From the IMG/VR virus record IMGVR_UViG_3300028534_000009: a stretch of DNA of 41,031 bases; one strand, given 5' to 3'. Position numbers and translations under genes: made by a program. The notes below the pieces were generated by a model. The model was not told the origin of the DNA. It was given only the letters and a program-made list of their open reading frames with translations, and did not search any database. Position 1 is the stretch's first letter. Each line of letters opens with the position of its first letter. The stretch is from a virus. Below, one piece after another: positions 9,717 to 34,391 of the stretch.

Positions 9717-9900
9717 TGAAGTCTAACTCCTCATTTATCTTTAATTTTCGTGAAACCCGCATTATTTCTGGCTTAGCAGGAATTTTTGAGGCTTAATAAA
9801 GCCACCTTTTTGTAAAAAACAAAGTTCTATTGTAAAAAGATTTCGTTTTATAATAGCAATCGCGCAAACAAGTTTTACAGGGTTTATACTACCTCAAAAA

Positions 9901-10430
9901 TTCCGTGGAACACCGATGAATTCTAGGGTGCACGCTCACGAAAGTCGAGGTGTCTATCGTGTCACTTTTCTAAAATTCGTGTCTCCGTTCTAGCCCGCAT
10001 TATTCCTAGTATTGAGTTCTAATTGTAATTAAGATTCAGTTTCAGTTTAAAGTGGGGAATTTTTACCCAATTCTAGGAAGTGCTGATTACATCTAGGGTG
10101 CACGAAAATCAAAGAAAGTAACACATAATTCTATGGTTACAGTGATTCGTGACACGCTTCCGTGGAACACCGATGGTTCCTTGGATTGAGCTTGGTAATT
10201 CTATTGTTTAGTGAAGAATTTGGTTTAGTTAATTAATGGATAAAGTAGATTTGCTGGGAGCTAGGGCTGGTGCTGGCTAGATGGGAATTTATTTTTGTCA
10301 AGAAAGGCGTGGAACATTTCTCAGTTTTTGGAGCTGGAAGCCGTTCCGTGGAACACGCATAAATGCTGGGTTTCGAGCGCTGTGCGGTCGCCGTGCCTTT
10401 TGACGCCGTGTTACGAACCAGCGTGGAACA
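9901..10430 (+). repeat. Iteron-like array of five same-orientation CGTGGAACA copies
   Basis: Copies start at 9904, 10161, 10308, 10347 and 10422. Those at 9901-9918 and 10158-10175 are identical 18-mers TTCCGTGGAACACCGATG. They are interleaved with TCTAGGGTGCACG (9922, 10092) and CGTG(T/A)CAC (9958, 10148). Confidence 0.85.
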
Positions 10431-11287: not shown

Positions 11288-12841
11288 ATGGATAAGGGGA
11301 GAGAGGTGAAGGAGAAGAAGGTGCGGTTTTTGGCGGACGAGGAGGTGTTATATCTCGTTGAGCAGTGTTTGCATGGTGTTGATGAGAGGCGGAGGTTGTA
11401 CGAGGGTTACTTGCGGGATTACTTAAACAATCGTGAGCAGAACATGATTTATGTGTTTCTCAATGCAGTGTTGTCGCTTATTTATTATCCTGACAATGTG
11501 GTGTTTGACATAAAGGGGAAGTACAGGTTTGCGGATGCGATGGCGGAGGAGTTGAAGACTTCGTTTTATCGTGATGGGCTTGACCTGTGGCTTTATGGTG
11601 TTATCACGCTTGGGTTAGTGCTTGGGTCTGTTATTGTTAAGAGTGTGTGGCGAGATGGTCGTGTTAAGCATATTCTCGTTATGCCTCACAACTTTGGTGT
11701 GTTATACGAGGACATGGATGAGATTGACAGTCGTTCTCAGGTAGTTTGTGAGGTTGCCTATCTCCCTTATCGTGAGGCTGTGTGGAAGTTTGGTGAAGAT
11801 GTGGTGCAGGCTGGAAAGATTGAAGGCGATAAGGGTCTCATTAATGGTGAGGGTTTGCTTGGGATCGTTTTAACTAAGGCTAAGCAGGCGTACCTTGAGC
11901 GTCCTGAGATAACAGGTGAGCCGAATTACGAAGAGATATTACAGCCACATACAGGCGACTATGTAGAGGTTAAGGAACTATGGGTGTACGACTACCATTT
12001 AGAAGACTGGGTTGTTTATCAGGTAATTGGCAGTCAGGTAGTGCGTCGTTTTCGTAATCCTTACTATAAAGGTATTCTCCCTTATTCGAACTTTACTGCT
12101 AACGACATTCCGAACTATTTCTGGGGTCGTTCTGAGATTTACTACTTACGCAACCTTCAAAAGAAGATTGACGAGTACCAGAGGCTCTTTGACGAGAGCA
12201 TAAACCTGCTCAAGAATCCACCTATACTCGTTAACGGGCAGGTAGCTGAAGAGGTAGCCGACGAAATCAAGCAGAAGCTTGTAACACCAGGGGAAATCGT
12301 ACCACTCCCGTTAGTAACGGGAGACATTAAGCCGTACGAAAGCAGGCTTAGTCCTGACATAGTGCTTCAGATATTCCAGAGTTACAAGAACCTTTTTATG
12401 GAAACTTCTGGATTATCTGAGATACTATTGGGGTCTTCCCTTAAAAATGTTCGTTCTGCTAGTCACGCTCAGATACTTGCCAACTTTGCTTCTGCTCCTC
12501 TTAAGCAGAAGGCATTGCGAGTGGAAGCCTTTATCGAACGCTTGATGACCACGCAAGCCTACTACACGATGCTAAACGAACCTAATTTATACGACCCGGA
12601 CGCAGACTTCATCGTCGAGGTTTACGCACACACTAGCTCCCCTATTACGATGATAGCCTACCAGGACATTCTATTCGAGCTAACCAAAGCAGGCTTGCTA
12701 CCCGTTGATGTCCTTATTGATGTACTTCCCATTCCACAAAAAGACCGAATAAAGCAGTACATAGCAATGAAAGAAATGATGGCGATGCAACAAGCCGTCC
12801 AACAGCAACAGCAGCCTCAAACGAAAAAGGAGAAGAAGTGA
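11288..12841 (+). CDS. Putative portal (head-tail connector) protein
   Basis: 517 aa, first large gene of the virion arm, with a Q-rich C-terminus. The size and general sequence character fit a portal. No diagnostic motif was verified. Confidence 0.5.
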   Translation: MDKGREVKEKKVRFLADEEVLYLVEQCLHGVDERRRLYEGYLRDYLNNREQNMIYVFLNAVLSLIYYPDNVVFDIKGKYRFADAMAEELKTSFYRDGLDLWLYGVITLGLVLGSVIVKSVWRDGRVKHILVMPHNFGVLYEDMDEIDSRSQVVCEVAYLPYREAVWKFGEDVVQAGKIEGDKGLINGEGLLGIVLTKAKQAYLERPEITGEPNYEEILQPHTGDYVEVKELWVYDYHLEDWVVYQVIGSQVVRRFRNPYYKGILPYSNFTANDIPNYFWGRSEIYYLRNLQKKIDEYQRLFDESINLLKNPPILVNGQVAEEVADEIKQKLVTPGEIVPLPLVTGDIKPYESRLSPDIVLQIFQSYKNLFMETSGLSEILLGSSLKNVRSASHAQILANFASAPLKQKALRVEAFIERLMTTQAYYTMLNEPNLYDPDADFIVEVYAHTSSPITMIAYQDILFELTKAGLLPVDVLIDVLPIPQKDRIKQYIAMKEMMAMQQAVQQQQQPQTKKEKK

Positions 12842-12955
12842 TTAGCCCAGGAGCCAGCCTCCCCTCCACCCTGCCTCCCTCTTCCAGGTGCCACCTCCTC
12901 TCTGGGCTTCTGGGCACCCATTTCCAACCACCAAGCCACCAACCACCCAAGCAAA
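12842..12955 (+). terminator. C-rich, G-poor tract, a possible rut site / Rho-dependent terminator after the portal gene
   Basis: By hand count about 54 C against 17 G in about 114 nt. It contains the tandem CCAACCACCAAGC / CCAACCACCCAAGC (12924-12952), then a G9 run (12956-12964). Confidence 0.3.
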
Positions 12956-12967
12956 GGGGGGGGGTTG

Positions 12968-13018
12968 ATAAGGGGGTACTCCCCCTTATATTGACTTTTT
13001 CTATTTTTGTGCTATAAA
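12968..13018 (+). promoter_or_regulatory. Promoter P2 (TTGACT 12991-12996, 16-nt spacer, TGcTATAAA to 13018) preceded by the palindrome ATAAGGGGG-N4-CCCCCTTAT
   Basis: Read directly. It is nearly identical to P3 across about 38 nt and has an extended -10 TG. Confidence 0.65.
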
Positions 13019-13154
13019 ACTTAATAAGATGGAAAACAAAGTGAAGCTGGCGATAGAAAGTGGGGTTAAGGCGGAAGGGAAGAATAACAAGGTTTCATGT
13101 GCCAGAGCCGTTGTTTGTGAGAAGACGCAAGAAGTATAACCGAAAGAAGAAAAG

Positions 13155-13265
13155 CCCAGCCCAGCCGAAACTAACTAGGAGGTAGTCGAGATGGCAAGAA
13201 GGAAGCACAGGAAAAAGAAAAGAGGACGCAAGTAACTAACCTCTGATGAGGACGGCTGGGCTGGG
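13155..13265 (+). repeat. Perfect 13-bp GC-rich inverted repeat (CCCAGCCCAGCCG / CGGCTGGGCTGGG) enclosing an SD and a 14-codon ORF
   Basis: The arms at 13155-13167 and 13253-13265 are exact reverse complements. Confidence 0.9.
13191..13235 (+). CDS. Micro-ORF encoding MARRKHRKKKRGRK (14 aa, 11 basic)
   Basis: AGGAGGTAGTCGAG precedes the ATG. The ORF lies inside the 13-bp inverted repeat in the leader of the 13308 operon. Translation is unproven. Confidence 0.35.
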   Translation: MARRKHRKKKRGRK

Positions 13266-13307
13266 TGTTGAAAGTTTAGATAAAAAGCTGAAAAGGAGGT
13301 TTAGCAA

Positions 13308-13898
13308 ATGGCTCATTTTTACATTAGCGACAATCAGCCAGTTAATCCCGTTAGTGGTGATTTTTGGTTTAAGCCTAGTGATAATAAGGTTTACAAGTTT
13401 GACGGTTCAGCGTGGAACGAGTTAGCTGGATTGCCTATTGACTTCAGTACATTATTTTCTGGAACGGTTCCTATTGAAGGGTTGGTATTGGCTTATGCAT
13501 TGCTTGCTGATACTGGATTGCCAAGTGCAGTGAAGGCACACTTTGTTAAGTCTGCTGCTCCTACAGTTGGAACTGGTGGAGTTTACGGTGCAGCGGTTGA
13601 CATTGAGCCTGCTGCTAACAAGTCTATCTTGCCCTTACAAGTCAAGACTTCTACGGCAGGAACTTTTGGTACAGGTGAAACCGTTACTGTTCGTGTTACT
13701 GCTACTTTCAGTGATGGTACTACTGCTTCCGTTACCAAGACTCACAGTGCAGCGGGAGACATCTGGTTTGCAGAGGCAGACCTTGCTGGATTGATGAAAG
13801 ACGGCGCTTACATAACGAAGCTATCTGTTGACGCAACTTCAAGTGCTGCTACTACGGCGGTAATTGCAAGCGTTGATGTGTACGGGTTGCAGGTATAA
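13308..13898 (+). CDS. Fibre- or decoration-like virion protein
   Basis: AAAGGAGGTTTAGCAA SD. The N-terminus is GDFWFKPSDNKVYKFDGSAWNEL, a motif class seen at phage fibre N-termini. The body is Thr/Ala/Val/Gly-rich and beta-like. Confidence 0.5.
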   Translation: MAHFYISDNQPVNPVSGDFWFKPSDNKVYKFDGSAWNELAGLPIDFSTLFSGTVPIEGLVLAYALLADTGLPSAVKAHFVKSAAPTVGTGGVYGAAVDIEPAANKSILPLQVKTSTAGTFGTGETVTVRVTATFSDGTTASVTKTHSAAGDIWFAEADLAGLMKDGAYITKLSVDATSSAATTAVIASVDVYGLQV

Positions 13899-14203
13899 TG
13901 ATTGGGCGTGTATTTTGGGACATAGAGCCGTTATTTGAGAAGGCTGTACCGAAAGTAGTTAAAGAGCTTGTGTGTCCTGTTTGTGGTTTTGGCAACTTTT
14001 TCTTTAAGCACGCACACGCATTCAGGAGAGGAGCAGGGCAGTACAGGGTGGACATAGCGGTTAAGTGTGAAGCGTGTGCATTGGTGTTGCAGTTTGGGGT
14101 GCACATAAGTCAACACGAATACGAGGCTTTGGTTAAAGTTTGGGGCAAGCAAACGCTTGATTACAACGATGTTGGGCACATTAAAATTGAAACAGGAGGT
14201 TAA
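13898..14203 (+). CDS. Zinc-ribbon protein (CPVC...CEAC)
   Basis: 101-aa ORF whose start overlaps the upstream stop (TAATG). Confidence 0.55.
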   Translation: MIGRVFWDIEPLFEKAVPKVVKELVCPVCGFGNFFFKHAHAFRRGAGQYRVDIAVKCEACALVLQFGVHISQHEYEALVKVWGKQTLDYNDVGHIKIETGG

Positions 14204-14205
14204 CG

Positions 14206-14607
14206 ATGCCTACTATAGACGACTTGAGAGCAATAGCAGGAAGTGAAGCACCAGCGGGAGCAGAAAATGCACCAGAAACACAGGCACAGGAACAGGCAGA
14301 ACCAGCGCCAGCAGGAATGCAGATAGGAGCACCTGCGGGTGGCGAAGAGATGATGCAGGCTGGTGTTAACATGCTTGCCAAAACTGTCGTAGCCAATGCT
14401 ATCGTTTCCTTAGAGGATGTTATTCCTCTTATTGGTTCTACTTCTGACTTAGGCAAAGCTATTGATAAGGCAATCAAGTCTCTTTCCAAGCATGTGGACA
14501 AAGACTTGATTGAAAAGATAAGAGCTACCAAAACACAAATGACTGCTCAGGCGTTAGGTGGAATAATGGGTGGAGGAGCACCTGCAGGAGCACCACCAGT
14601 TGTATAA
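14206..14607 (+). CDS. Hypothetical virion-arm protein with Ala/Gly/Pro-rich termini
   Basis: AGGAGGTTAACG SD, 133 aa. The antisense ORF 14181..14531 was rejected. Confidence 0.6.
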   Translation: MPTIDDLRAIAGSEAPAGAENAPETQAQEQAEPAPAGMQIGAPAGGEEMMQAGVNMLAKTVVANAIVSLEDVIPLIGSTSDLGKAIDKAIKSLSKHVDKDLIEKIRATKTQMTAQALGGIMGGGAPAGAPPVV

Positions 14608-18772: not shown

Positions 18773-18800
18773 TTGACATTTTAAATTTTTATGCTATAAA
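18773..18800 (+). promoter_or_regulatory. Promoter P3 (TTGACA-16-TGcTATAAA)
   Basis: TTGACATTTTAAATTTTTATGCTATAAAACTTAAT is nearly identical to P2. It is followed by AAGGAGG and an ATG at 18836. Confidence 0.65.
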
Positions 18801-18835
18801 ACTTAATTAAGGACAAAACTTAAGGAGGTTTAGTG

Positions 18836-19012
18836 ATGGCAAGAAAGAAAGGTGTTGGGTTAAATTGGCAACAGGGAAGAACAGTAGAGAAGTTTGACTA
18901 TGAGGTGTCTACTGACAGGTGGGGAATTGACGCTAGGGCAAAGAAGAAGTTTGAGCAGAGCAAAAAAGCACCTAAGATACCTGTTATTAAAATTGAAGTA
19001 CCTACCAAGTAA
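18836..19012 (+). CDS. Small basic protein (58 aa)
   Basis: MARKKGVGLNWQQGRTVEKFDYEVSTDRWGIDARAKKKFEQSKKAPKIPVIKIEVPTK with a TAAGGAGG SD, directly after P3. It is not in the ORF track. Confidence 0.55.
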   Translation: MARKKGVGLNWQQGRTVEKFDYEVSTDRWGIDARAKKKFEQSKKAPKIPVIKIEVPTK

Positions 19013-19617: not shown

Positions 19618-20709
19618 ATGGCTAACTTACCTACAATTGAAGTTGGACCAGTACCTAGTTCTTTTCCGATTGATGTAGCACAGCAGCAAACTCTGGTTGA
19701 AACCATAGCAAGGCAGACTAGCCCTGCTGTGGTTTATCATCAGTATCAGACATTTAGACCGTTTTTTAAGTTTTTGATGGCTAAGGCAAAGGTTAGAGAG
19801 TGGGCGGCAAACTTTCTTGAGATTCCAGTAACCGTGCCAAAGGACTACTCTGCTAGAGTGGGAACGCTTGACTTTGCTGGAAATGTGACCATACCTGCGG
19901 TTGATGTTGGCGAGTACCAGTGGGCAAGGTATCAGCCAGTAATCAAGGACATCGGAATTACTTTTAGTGAGCCTCAGATTAAGCTCTGGAAAGAGTCTCC
20001 TTACAGAATGATTGACGACATTAAGAAACAGCTTATGGATACTTACAAAGCTCTTTTTGACACCGTTTCAGAGAACCTTTACACTTCTGGTTACGATGCT
20101 ACATTGACTCCACCTGCTTGGAACAACACCAAGTTTCTTGGTTTGCAGGATGTAGTTGACGATGGAACTACTGCACCAGACTTTGGTGGTATTGATAGAA
20201 GCACTTATACTTGGTGGAGTGCGTTTGTAGTTGACGCTACTACTTTAGGAGTTGCTGCTGGGTCTGAGTATCTTATAGTGCGTTACGCAGCAGCAAAGTA
20301 CCAGAAGACTATTAAAGAGCCTCATCCTACTTTAGCATTCTGTAATTTTGGAACTTTTGAAAAGTTAGCTGCATCTATGCTTGCAACCTTGCCTACTGAG
20401 AGAGTTCAGTACACTACTTCTTACGACCAGATTGCTTCTAGAGAGGCAGAAACTACTGGAATCAAGATTGCAGATGTAGTGTTCTTGGTTGACCCAAATA
20501 TTGACGAGGGAACGATTTACATACTTGACCCAGAGGCAATTCAGTTTGACTTTATTGAGGGTTACGATGTTGAGATGAGACCTTTTGTAAGTCTTGAGCC
20601 AGTAGGAAAGTTTGCATTTGCAAGCTGGCTCTTGTTTGGTGGACAGCTTTATTCTCAGAGCCCATACAGACACATTAAGATAACCAATGTGCCTTATGTA
20701 ACCTTATAA
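19618..20709 (+). CDS. Putative major capsid protein
   Basis: 363 aa with a strong TAGGAGGTG SD. It follows the scaffold-like gene, and its size and composition fit an HK97-fold capsid protein. The assignment is by position. Confidence 0.65.
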   Translation: MANLPTIEVGPVPSSFPIDVAQQQTLVETIARQTSPAVVYHQYQTFRPFFKFLMAKAKVREWAANFLEIPVTVPKDYSARVGTLDFAGNVTIPAVDVGEYQWARYQPVIKDIGITFSEPQIKLWKESPYRMIDDIKKQLMDTYKALFDTVSENLYTSGYDATLTPPAWNNTKFLGLQDVVDDGTTAPDFGGIDRSTYTWWSAFVVDATTLGVAAGSEYLIVRYAAAKYQKTIKEPHPTLAFCNFGTFEKLAASMLATLPTERVQYTTSYDQIASREAETTGIKIADVVFLVDPNIDEGTIYILDPEAIQFDFIEGYDVEMRPFVSLEPVGKFAFASWLLFGGQLYSQSPYRHIKITNVPYVTL

Positions 20710-32630: not shown

Positions 32631-34391
32631 ATGAAGCTACTTGAAAAGTTTTTGTTATTCTTAGCTAATAGTTGGGTTGCTACTAAGGACTACGGTTTAA
32701 TCAAACTGCATCCGTCTAAGCTTTTTGGTTCTCAGAAAAAACTCATAAAGGACATATTTGAAGAATTAGCTAAAGGTTCAGCAAGAAGAAACTTTGTTAT
32801 TCTTAAAGCAAGGCAGTTAGGAATAACGACGATAACTGAGCTTATTGACTTGTTCTGGGCACAAATCCATAAGGGAATTAAGATTGCTTTCTTGTGTCAG
32901 GATTACACGATGAAGCTTCACTACAGAAGAGACTTAGGTGTTATTTATTCCAGCCTGCCCAAGCACTTTAAGATGCCTTTAGTAAGCGACAGCAGAGAAG
33001 CTTTGGTGTTTAAAAACGGTTCTTCTATTATGTTCTTTCACGAGCCTAAAAAAGGAGCTAAAGAAATTGTTAGAGGGCAGGCTATTACCTGTCTTCACTC
33101 TACAGAAACAGCTTTCTACGAAAACTTTGAACGAATAAAGGGTGGCTTGCTTCCTGCGTTATCAGAAGAACATCCTGCAAGGTATGTTATCTACGAGAGC
33201 ACGGCTAATGGTTTTAACCACTTCTACGACTTGTGGCACACTGCTGAAAACGGTGTTACTTATAAGCCAATATTTCTTGGTTGGTGGTTAAAGGAAAGCT
33301 ATCGTATTGACCCAGAAAAACAGCCTGAACTATGGGAAGTTTACTCTTATCGTCCTAATAGAGATGAGCGTCTAAGGATGCAAATGGTTAAGAAACTTTA
33401 CGGTTACGAGCTTACTCTTGAGCAGCTTGCTTGGTGGAGAATGAAGCTGTTTGAAGAGTTTAACGGTGATGAGGAATTAATGCTACAGGAATATCCTTTT
33501 ACCGCTGAAGATGCTTTCAGGTATACTGGTAACCAGTTTATTAAACCACAGGTGTTAATGGAGATTAAGAAAAACATACTTGAGATTAAGCCCCACTATT
33601 ATCTCGTTCAGTTTCCTGACTACAACATGATGGTCGTTAGAGACGGCAATTCAAGGAAGTACAACTTAAAAATATGGGAATATCCTGTTAGAGGAGAAAT
33701 TTATTTCCTTGGAGCTGATCCGAGCTATGGTGCTAATCCTGACAGCGACTTTGCCTGCGTTAGCGTATGGAGAGTTGACTGGCAGGAAGACGGAGCAAAA
33801 CTAGTGCAGGTAGCAGAGTTTGGTGAAAGAGAGTGCGATGTTATTAACTTTGCTAAAGTGTGCTTGTGGCTAACGACTATTTATAACGGAGGCTATTTTA
33901 ACCTTGAAGTTACTGGTCCAGGGCTTGCAGTTGTTAGAGAGATTGACAGATATAAGGCAAACAACTTCAACATTGGTGAAATAAAGGTAATGAGCAAGCG
34001 TCCTGAAGCTGAGCACTTGACCCAGTATGTCAGAATGATTAACGAGTATGTTTACTGGAGAGCAGATAGGCTTCGTCCTGGTGGTGGGGTCAGGCACTTC
34101 AAAACAATAGGAGAAGAACGAGTTAAAGGGCTATTCTTACTCAAGTCTCTTATAGAAAACAAGGTTGTTATTCCTCGTTCAGACGACCTGTTAGAGCAGC
34201 TAAAATACATGAGCATAGACGACAGCGGAGTTCCGAGAAGTTTTGGTCCCAACGACGACCTGGTCTTTGGAGCAATGCTTGCAGTAGAGTACTTCAATCA
34301 GATGCTACCTTATCTTCCTAAAAGGAAACAAAAAGAACTTTCAAGACAGGAAGCACTTCAGAACATTGCCAAGTCTGTATTGATACAATAA
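32631..34391 (+). CDS. terL: Terminase large subunit
   Basis: VILKARQLGITT (Walker A-like), ITCLHSTETAF (Walker B region), YESTANGFNHFY (coupling motif) and LGADPSYG...DFACVSVW (nuclease-domain Asp). 586 aa. Confidence 0.8.
   Translation: MKLLEKFLLFLANSWVATKDYGLIKLHPSKLFGSQKKLIKDIFEELAKGSARRNFVILKARQLGITTITELIDLFWAQIHKGIKIAFLCQDYTMKLHYRRDLGVIYSSLPKHFKMPLVSDSREALVFKNGSSIMFFHEPKKGAKEIVRGQAITCLHSTETAFYENFERIKGGLLPALSEEHPARYVIYESTANGFNHFYDLWHTAENGVTYKPIFLGWWLKESYRIDPEKQPELWEVYSYRPNRDERLRMQMVKKLYGYELTLEQLAWWRMKLFEEFNGDEELMLQEYPFTAEDAFRYTGNQFIKPQVLMEIKKNILEIKPHYYLVQFPDYNMMVVRDGNSRKYNLKIWEYPVRGEIYFLGADPSYGANPDSDFACVSVWRVDWQEDGAKLVQVAEFGERECDVINFAKVCLWLTTIYNGGYFNLEVTGPGLAVVREIDRYKANNFNIGEIKVMSKRPEAEHLTQYVRMINEYVYWRADRLRPGGGVRHFKTIGEERVKGLFLLKSLIENKVVIPRSDDLLEQLKYMSIDDSGVPRSFGPNDDLVFGAMLAVEYFNQMLPYLPKRKQKELSRQEALQNIAKSVLIQ

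Follow-up and report, generated by a model that had tools for sequence, protein, structure and literature searches.

The stretch of DNA analysed here (the window, 41,031 nt) covers an entire circular phage genome, 40,904 bp in size, and its first and last 127 nt are identical. Along its plus arm the order runs from the portal gene to the capsid gene and on to the large terminase gene (Table 1). The gap that follows the portal gene measures 466 nt. From 5' to 3' it contains a C-rich island, then a terminator-like hairpin, a predicted promoter (P2) and finally an element in which a long helix encloses a very short polybasic open reading frame. The terminator-like hairpin overlaps the -35 of P2, and a promoter scan instead picks an overlapping TTGATA-16-TATATT at 12965-12992. 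A second copy of P2, at 89% identity, lies at 18773-18807. The predicted P2 transcript start falls ~130 nt upstream of the helix, and the leader between them is filled by a 36-codon ATG ORF (13030-13140) that has no Shine–Dalgarno (SD) sequence and no counterpart in the relatives considered below, and is probably non-coding. A weak promoter-like sequence, TTGTTT-18-TATAAC, is also found at about 13112-13141, with a predicted start 7-9 nt upstream of the helix.

Table 1. Features of the window around the polybasic micro-gene and in its head-gene neighbourhood.
Feature	Coordinates	Strand	Remarks
Portal gene	11288-12841	+ arm	weak PHROG portal/adaptor matches
Terminator-like G5/C5 hairpin with T-rich tail	12968..12989	+	9 pairs, tail ATTGACTTTT; 3' of portal gene and C-rich island
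Predicted promoter P2, TTGACT-16 nt-TATAAA, TG upstream	12991..13018	+	from sequence; repeat family
5' arm of outer helix	13154..13167	+	
Shine–Dalgarno AGGAGG	13178..13183	+	7 nt 5' of ATG
Micro-gene, 14 codons plus TAA	13191..13235	+	orthologues in relatives; purifying selection
TAACTAA	13233..13239	+	stop TAA (13233-13235), second TAA in +1 frame
Anti-SD stretch, contains CCUCU	13238..13244	+	pairs with SD; only in the window's lineage
3' arm of outer helix	13253..13266	+	
196-aa gene	13308..13898	+	adjoins 3' side of micro-gene; no homologue in related loci
Acidic 133-aa gene (A2 family)	14206..14607	+	homologue neighbours micro-gene in every lineage
Capsid gene	19618-20709	+ arm	
Large terminase gene	32631-34391	+ arm	

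The original prediction described an exact inverted repeat (13155-13167 and 13253-13265) around a translatable ORF, and its outline is borne out: the arms are exact reverse complements, and the 85 nt that they enclose contain the AGGAGG, an ATG at 13191 and the 14-codon ORF, as claimed. A further pair, G13154-U13266, extends the perfect 13-bp repeat to 14 pairs. The peptide is indeed polybasic, but the 11 Arg/Lys residues with which it had been credited are one too many, as we find 10 Lys/Arg and one His. After Met-Ala it contains no acidic and no hydrophobic residues, and it carries a charge of about +10 on 14 residues (13 without the initiator Met). In silico, the RNA of 13140-13310 folds with an energy of -46.6 kcal/mol, for which 200 shuffles give z = -4.0, and the pair probability of the outer helix is 0.96 at 85 °C. 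The repeat by itself is weak evidence, because the genome contains two perfect inverted repeats of at least 13 bp within 200 nt where 0.44 are expected by chance (first-order Markov model); we judge the element to be beyond chance because relatives conserve it. The only other such 13-bp repeat (9779-9791 / 9892-9904) sits in the gene-free hub that separates the two arms of the genome, and the window genome holds no further copies of the repeat around the micro-ORF. A search of Rfam over 12600-13500 returned sub-threshold chance matches only, and thus no known structured RNA such as the phi29 packaging RNA (pRNA).

A nucleotide search with 12800-13400 against GenBank phages gave zero matches, as did IMG/VR scans with single proteins (the window portal and the 196-aa protein). 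Relatives were gathered with a profile built from five portal proteins, which recovered 33 loci in IMG/VR and among species genomes; a further 42 loci from metagenomes are mostly the same contigs. The portals of these relatives are about 28-37% identical to that of the window. Absence of the stem or the ORF from related genomes had been named as grounds for rejecting the element, and the outcome went against this: 25 of the 33 portal-related loci share a common layout inside a gap of 150-330 nt downstream of the portal stop. The layout consists of a long helix, an SD, an ORF of 14-20 codons beginning ATG-GCN or ATG-CCN, and a TAA stop that usually takes the form TAACTAA (19 of 25 unique elements, the window counted). 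Almost all codons in the ORFs of the relatives specify Lys, Arg or Gly, the rest being a handful for small residues, and each ORF has 9-13 Lys/Arg. Short ORFs rich in Lys/Arg (at least 50%) and devoid of acidic residues were sought in a blind scan, which yielded exactly one SD-led candidate starting Met-Ala/Pro-Arg per locus, and two in L003, L004 and L020; the census totals 25 distinct micro-ORFs in 24 helix units.

The two micro-ORFs of L003 (5681-5725 and 5763-5816) are different, stand in tandem with an SD each, and share one enclosing helix. This type of arrangement is also found in L004, L020, L034, L035 and L046 and, judged from the sequences, looks like a duplication limited to the coding part. 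The recurrent TAACTAA could serve to stop translation in two frames behind slippery Lys codons, or else act as a signal through its specific sequence; clades A and C allow it to pair with part of the 3' arm, in competition with the 5' arm. Five related loci, mostly fragments, yielded no micro-gene in the available sequence, and L001 lacks it at the expected place, its acidic gene directly adjoining the portal gene. L001 (JAVZXS010000006.1) and P0005 are phage contigs binned into archaeal MAGs (Micrarchaeia and Sulfolobaceae). SD sites of bacterial type and promoters resembling those of sigma-70 occur in the phage family despite this binning, and the archaeal assignment of the two contigs is probably mis-binning.

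The suggestion that the micro-ORF is a translated gene finds support in these comparisons, with an SD in every relative and a dN/dS of about 0.1. Across nine within-clade comparisons, differences number 19 synonymous versus 6 non-synonymous (pN/pS 0.10, binomial p = 7e-8), which is a crude count over pairs that are not wholly independent. Three members of one clade encode an identical 15-residue peptide with 8 synonymous and 0 non-synonymous differences between them, and the non-basic residues are likewise conserved within clades. Arg is encoded by codons of both kinds, AGR and CGN, which argues that the peptide itself is conserved and not mere purine richness. The number of Lys and Arg residues (9-13) is also near constant while the length ranges from 14 to 20. 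Taken as comparative sequence evidence, these patterns indicate that 13191-13235 is a real, unannotated micro-gene.

The arms of the helix are unrelated in sequence among about 10 lineages, yet they are complementary and found at the syntenic place. In each lineage the ORF is bracketed by a Watson–Crick run of 9-14 pairs (10-17 with G-U); at random places of matched geometry in the same locus the mean run is 6.5-7, and a fraction of 0-0.06 of such places reach the observed run. The longest run was used as the statistic, the duplex energies of 100-nt flanks being too noisy. Since a MAFFT alignment of all elements leaves the arms out of register, compensatory changes were counted within clades only and no covariance model was used. 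The search for such changes in related phages, which had been proposed as a check on the stem, did find pairs kept by double changes at homologous within-clade positions: an A-U to G-C change between L007 and L009, four compensatory changes between L007 and L005, a G-C pair of L016 that is A-U in L018, and one of L011 that is U-A in L014. Several one-sided changes in the arms also preserve pairing. Run length is 14.6 when G-U is allowed versus 12.8 when A-C is allowed (p = 0.015), and this tolerance of G-U beyond A-C argues for plus-strand RNA and not a DNA site. Minimum-energy folds contain 19-36 long-range pairs. Together with the stability predicted at 85 °C, the pattern of substitution supports 13154-13167 / 13253-13266 as a conserved, thermostable long-range RNA helix.

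The third constant of the locus is an acidic gene. In all lineages the first conserved gene downstream of the micro-gene is a member of the A2 family, homologous throughout (alignment A2). A2 homologues are about 135 aa long and acidic (net -2 to -11), and share a short conserved N-terminal motif; the 133-aa protein of the window has a net charge of -6, Pro/Ala/Gly-rich tails and a predicted three-helix core. Its AlphaFold model shows the core with confidence and the tails as disordered, and comparison of this model with the PDB and viral folds gave no informative match. In the window, the 196-aa gene and a 101-aa gene (13898-14203) separate the micro-gene from the A2 gene. No related locus has a homologue of the 101-aa gene, and these two genes look, from the sequence comparison, like a lineage-specific insertion that parts the micro-gene from its usual partner. 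Neither the 196-aa nor the 133-aa protein has a family match in Pfam, PHROGs or NCBIfam.

The position of the unit relative to promoters differs among lineages. In L027, L033 and L076 (the last being drawn from the complete genome to which L031 belongs), portal and unit lie apart, and the order is promoter, unit, acidic gene, scaffold-position gene and capsid gene. The promoters of these three are near-consensus sigma-70-type sites (10-11/12 matches) whose -10 hexamer ends 6-9 nt upstream of the first paired base, so that the transcript is predicted to have the helix as its 5'-terminal structure. The helix of L018 and L019 begins within 2 nt of the portal stop, which places the unit inside a polycistronic RNA, and no promoter was found between portal and helix in L006, L008, L011 and L016.

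A small gene of about 50-58 aa immediately precedes the scaffold-position gene in the window (18836-19012) and in most relatives (L010 14341-14496, L006 3031-3186, L017 11837-11992 and others); its product has basic N- and C-terminal ends and an acidic, conserved middle. The original prediction had related the MARKK start of this 18836 ORF to that of the micro-gene, but the protein is a different and separately conserved one. As a paralogue of the micro-gene it is ruled out, the first five residues matching in the window's copy only.

Much more distant phages keep the unit in a looser form. Two phages of Manatee Spring, MW202753 and MW202825, are the closest in GenBank by portal (about 25% identity). 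In both, the portal gene is followed by a 54-aa ORF and two SD-led 13-codon polybasic ORFs, which are unannotated; the next gene is an A2-family homologue (hhalign probability 88%, E = 3e-6), and after it come a homologue of the window's scaffold-position gene and then the capsid gene. Local hairpins follow each polybasic ORF, and a long enclosing helix was not seen in these two genomes. Hypothetical proteins annotated on the opposite strand overlie the polybasic micro-ORFs (4740-5038 in L077, which is MW202753, and 7749-8009 in L078, which is MW202825), and these calls are probably mis-annotations. Full-text literature searches found no published polybasic micro-genes in tailed phages. Within the uncultured hot-spring phage family of the window, the comparative evidence supports helix, micro-gene and acidic gene as a unit that is kept together.

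What might such a unit do? Among the functions offered by the original prediction, a packaged DNA-condensing micro-peptide is our best guess. We give roughly even chances to the fuller reading that the micro-gene encodes an abundantly made polycation for head assembly or packaging, with the helix serving as a thermostable clamp on the mini-cistron. The peptide would be made in quantity, as suggested by the consensus SD, the open purine-rich loop and the duplicated copy in one lineage, and would bind nucleic acid as a polycation during head assembly or DNA packaging. Its location in the virion and its binding to DNA are what we infer purely from its charge and gene neighbourhood. The acidic neighbour could partner, buffer or deliver the peptide; since this protein has no recognisable fold relative, the proposed role in head assembly follows from gene position only. 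The helix would be a clamp that delimits or protects the mini-cistron and not an on/off switch. Where a promoter is adjacent, it would form the 5' end of a late transcript and act as a stabiliser jointly with the strong SD, and in lineages that transcribe the unit together with the portal gene it would be a stem for RNase III-type processing or for insulation. A stabiliser role would need a processing step in the window, where P2 is ~130 nt away from the helix, and in the portal-adjacent lineages, where no promoter was found. No sequence rule predicts RNase III cleavage at this helix, which would be a candidate stem. The pairing of SD and anti-SD, seen in the window only, may be a local add-on that loosens with temperature.

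The helix and the strong SD could instead be all that matters. As a leader that loads ribosomes or stabilises the 5' end, the SD and the short ORF would hold a ribosome in place and so protect or enhance the late mRNA downstream, and the peptide would be functionless and basic only by way of a purine-rich RNA. The open, purine-rich loop and the strong SD are in keeping with this, as is the position of the helix at the predicted transcript 5' end in three lineages, and there are precedents in the ermC leader, the cryIIIA STAB-SD and polypurine stabilisers (PMC3997798). However, we regard such a leader as unlikely, given the dN/dS of about 0.1 and the conservation of non-basic residues within clades, and it sits poorly with the many Arg codons that are CGN and hence not purine-rich. 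Nor does it account for a charge that is near constant though the length varies, for the L003 tandem in which the ORF is duplicated with its own SD, or for the distant phages, which retain polybasic ORFs without the helix. A functional peptide might on the other hand act on RNA, as an arginine-rich RNA-binding peptide of the lambda N/Tat type that recognises its own helix or hairpins, whether for autoregulation, for antitermination or as part of a small RNP at the portal. Arginine-rich motifs resemble the micro-peptide in composition and length, its gene always lies within a conserved RNA structure, and some clades have extra small hairpins downstream of the helix. The arms, however, are lineage-specific, and we find no conserved hairpin sequence or loop that would offer a specific target. 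The peptide also has no extra domain with which to contact polymerase or a Nus factor, and Rfam gave no match to a known RNA, phi29 packaging RNA included, so that we consider this reading quite unlikely.

The original prediction spoke of an ORF locked inside its stem and of an attenuator. Under control of this kind, ribosome stalling at Lys/Arg codons or melting of the SD/anti-SD pair would gate the downstream operon. The SD/anti-SD pairing behind this idea is real in the window, where the predicted probability of an unpaired SD is 0.04 at 37 °C and rises to 0.52 at 85 °C, and an alternative pairing is conceivable in clades A and C, which carry a second copy of the 3'-arm partner around the stop. 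As a conserved lock the pairing does not hold up, the SD being 0.6-0.9 unpaired in most relatives; the start codon is mostly open there too, and almost all of them leave the next gene's SD free. No plus-strand terminator-like site was found downstream of the 3' arm in the window and seven relatives, and anything between 4 and 31 nt separates the stop from the 3' arm, so that a terminating ribosome would have no constant relation to the helix. Open SDs, the missing terminator and the variable spacing together make an attenuator or a conserved SD lock very improbable. Two specific forms of the idea were set aside in the same way, a leader-peptide transcription attenuator on account of the missing terminator and the 4-31 nt spacing, and an SD-sequestering riboregulator or RNA thermometer because the SD is paired in the window alone. 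The proposal that the repeat acts as DNA, whether as two half-sites for a protein, as a cruciform or as a miniature inverted-repeat insertion with an incidental ORF, draws on the fact that the inverted repeat is perfect as DNA, and we find it barely credible. The arms differ from lineage to lineage yet stay complementary in a syntenic place, G-U pairs are tolerated where A-C pairs are not, the genome has no additional copies, and the enclosed ORF is under purifying selection.

If the preferred reading of a polycation that is packaged, or acts in the assembly phase, is true, a genome-condensation protein of tailed phages is missing from the textbooks, with a bearing on packaging forces, capsid pressure and thermostability. 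A broader version, which we put forward tentatively and think less probable than not, is that many tailed phages, well outside the hot-spring family, encode portal-adjacent polycation counter-ion peptides, made in bulk from structured mini-mRNAs, handled by a conserved acidic partner and loaded with or onto the DNA at packaging. Caudoviricetes would then possess a gene-encoded equivalent of polyamines or protamines, and such genes would have been overlooked so far because they are shorter than every ORF cutoff. The micro-gene escapes standard annotation and offers a concrete case of functional micro-genes in the 'intergenic' DNA of phages. The constant pairing with an acidic protein with disordered tails leads to a specific two-component hypothesis. 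The covarying helix would be a clean natural mRNA clamp on a mini-cistron in a thermophile, perhaps reusable as a stabilising or insulating part.

Viral polycationic micro-proteins are known, as are mRNA clamps and stabilisers, and neither is described in the present setting. Small polycationic DNA-binding packaging proteins include protein J of phiX174 and other Microviridae, and the adenovirus core peptide mu. Like J, the micro-peptide is tiny, extremely basic, without enzymatic potential and encoded among morphogenesis genes; its gene lies either in the interval from the portal to the head genes or just upstream of the scaffold-position gene and the capsid gene. By analogy with J and mu, the micro-peptide could plausibly act as a counter-ion or DNA tether. 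The likeness is one of size, charge and gene position, in a peptide too short for homology tests, and a search of NCBIfam with a 20-residue micro-peptide member gave no match. Unlike J, the micro-peptide has no hydrophobic or aromatic C-terminal capsid anchor, its C-termini being basic or made of small residues in all lineages. Viruses of the J type, moreover, do not belong to the tailed phages, which have a terminase motor, and we know of no RNA clamp around the J gene.

For the helix, the comparisons lie with structured mRNAs. In the S. aureus icaR mRNA, the 5' and 3' regions pair and the downstream partner covers the SD (PMC3868564). The present helix resembles icaR and hok-type mRNAs in its pairing across a short ORF, and in the window the SD is likewise covered by the downstream partner, whereas the SD of the relatives is uncovered. 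It differs from hok-type type I toxin systems in that the micro-peptide lacks a hydrophobic stretch and is not a hydrophobic toxin. No consistent promoter for an antisense RNA was found on the minus strand of the window and seven relatives; the promoter-like sites on the minus strand of L027, L033 and L076 are weak (9-10/12) and inconsistent in position. An occluded 5' end and strong SD sites are established stabilisers of mRNA, with examples in ompA, ermC, the cryIIIA STAB-SD and aprE (PMC3997798). The helices of L027, L033 and L076 are similar in lying a few nt from the predicted start, with a consensus SD near the 5' end. Unlike these stabilisers, the helix is formed over a long range around a conserved coding gene and is not a local hairpin ahead of one, and in the window and the portal-adjacent lineages it lies away from the primary 5' end.

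Stems formed by flanking sequences are processed by RNase III in the 16S and 23S rRNA precursors and at the intercistronic sites of T7. Processing at a stem of flanking sequence is also reported for the B. subtilis scRNA precursor (PMC1935012). The helix described here shares with such stems that its flanks pair as a helix of 14-30 bp bracketing an RNA, mostly inside a polycistronic transcript, and these flanks provide the roughly two turns of double-stranded RNA that are typical of an RNase III-type stem, maintained by covariation. It differs from them in what it brackets, which in the present case is predicted to be a translated mini-cistron.
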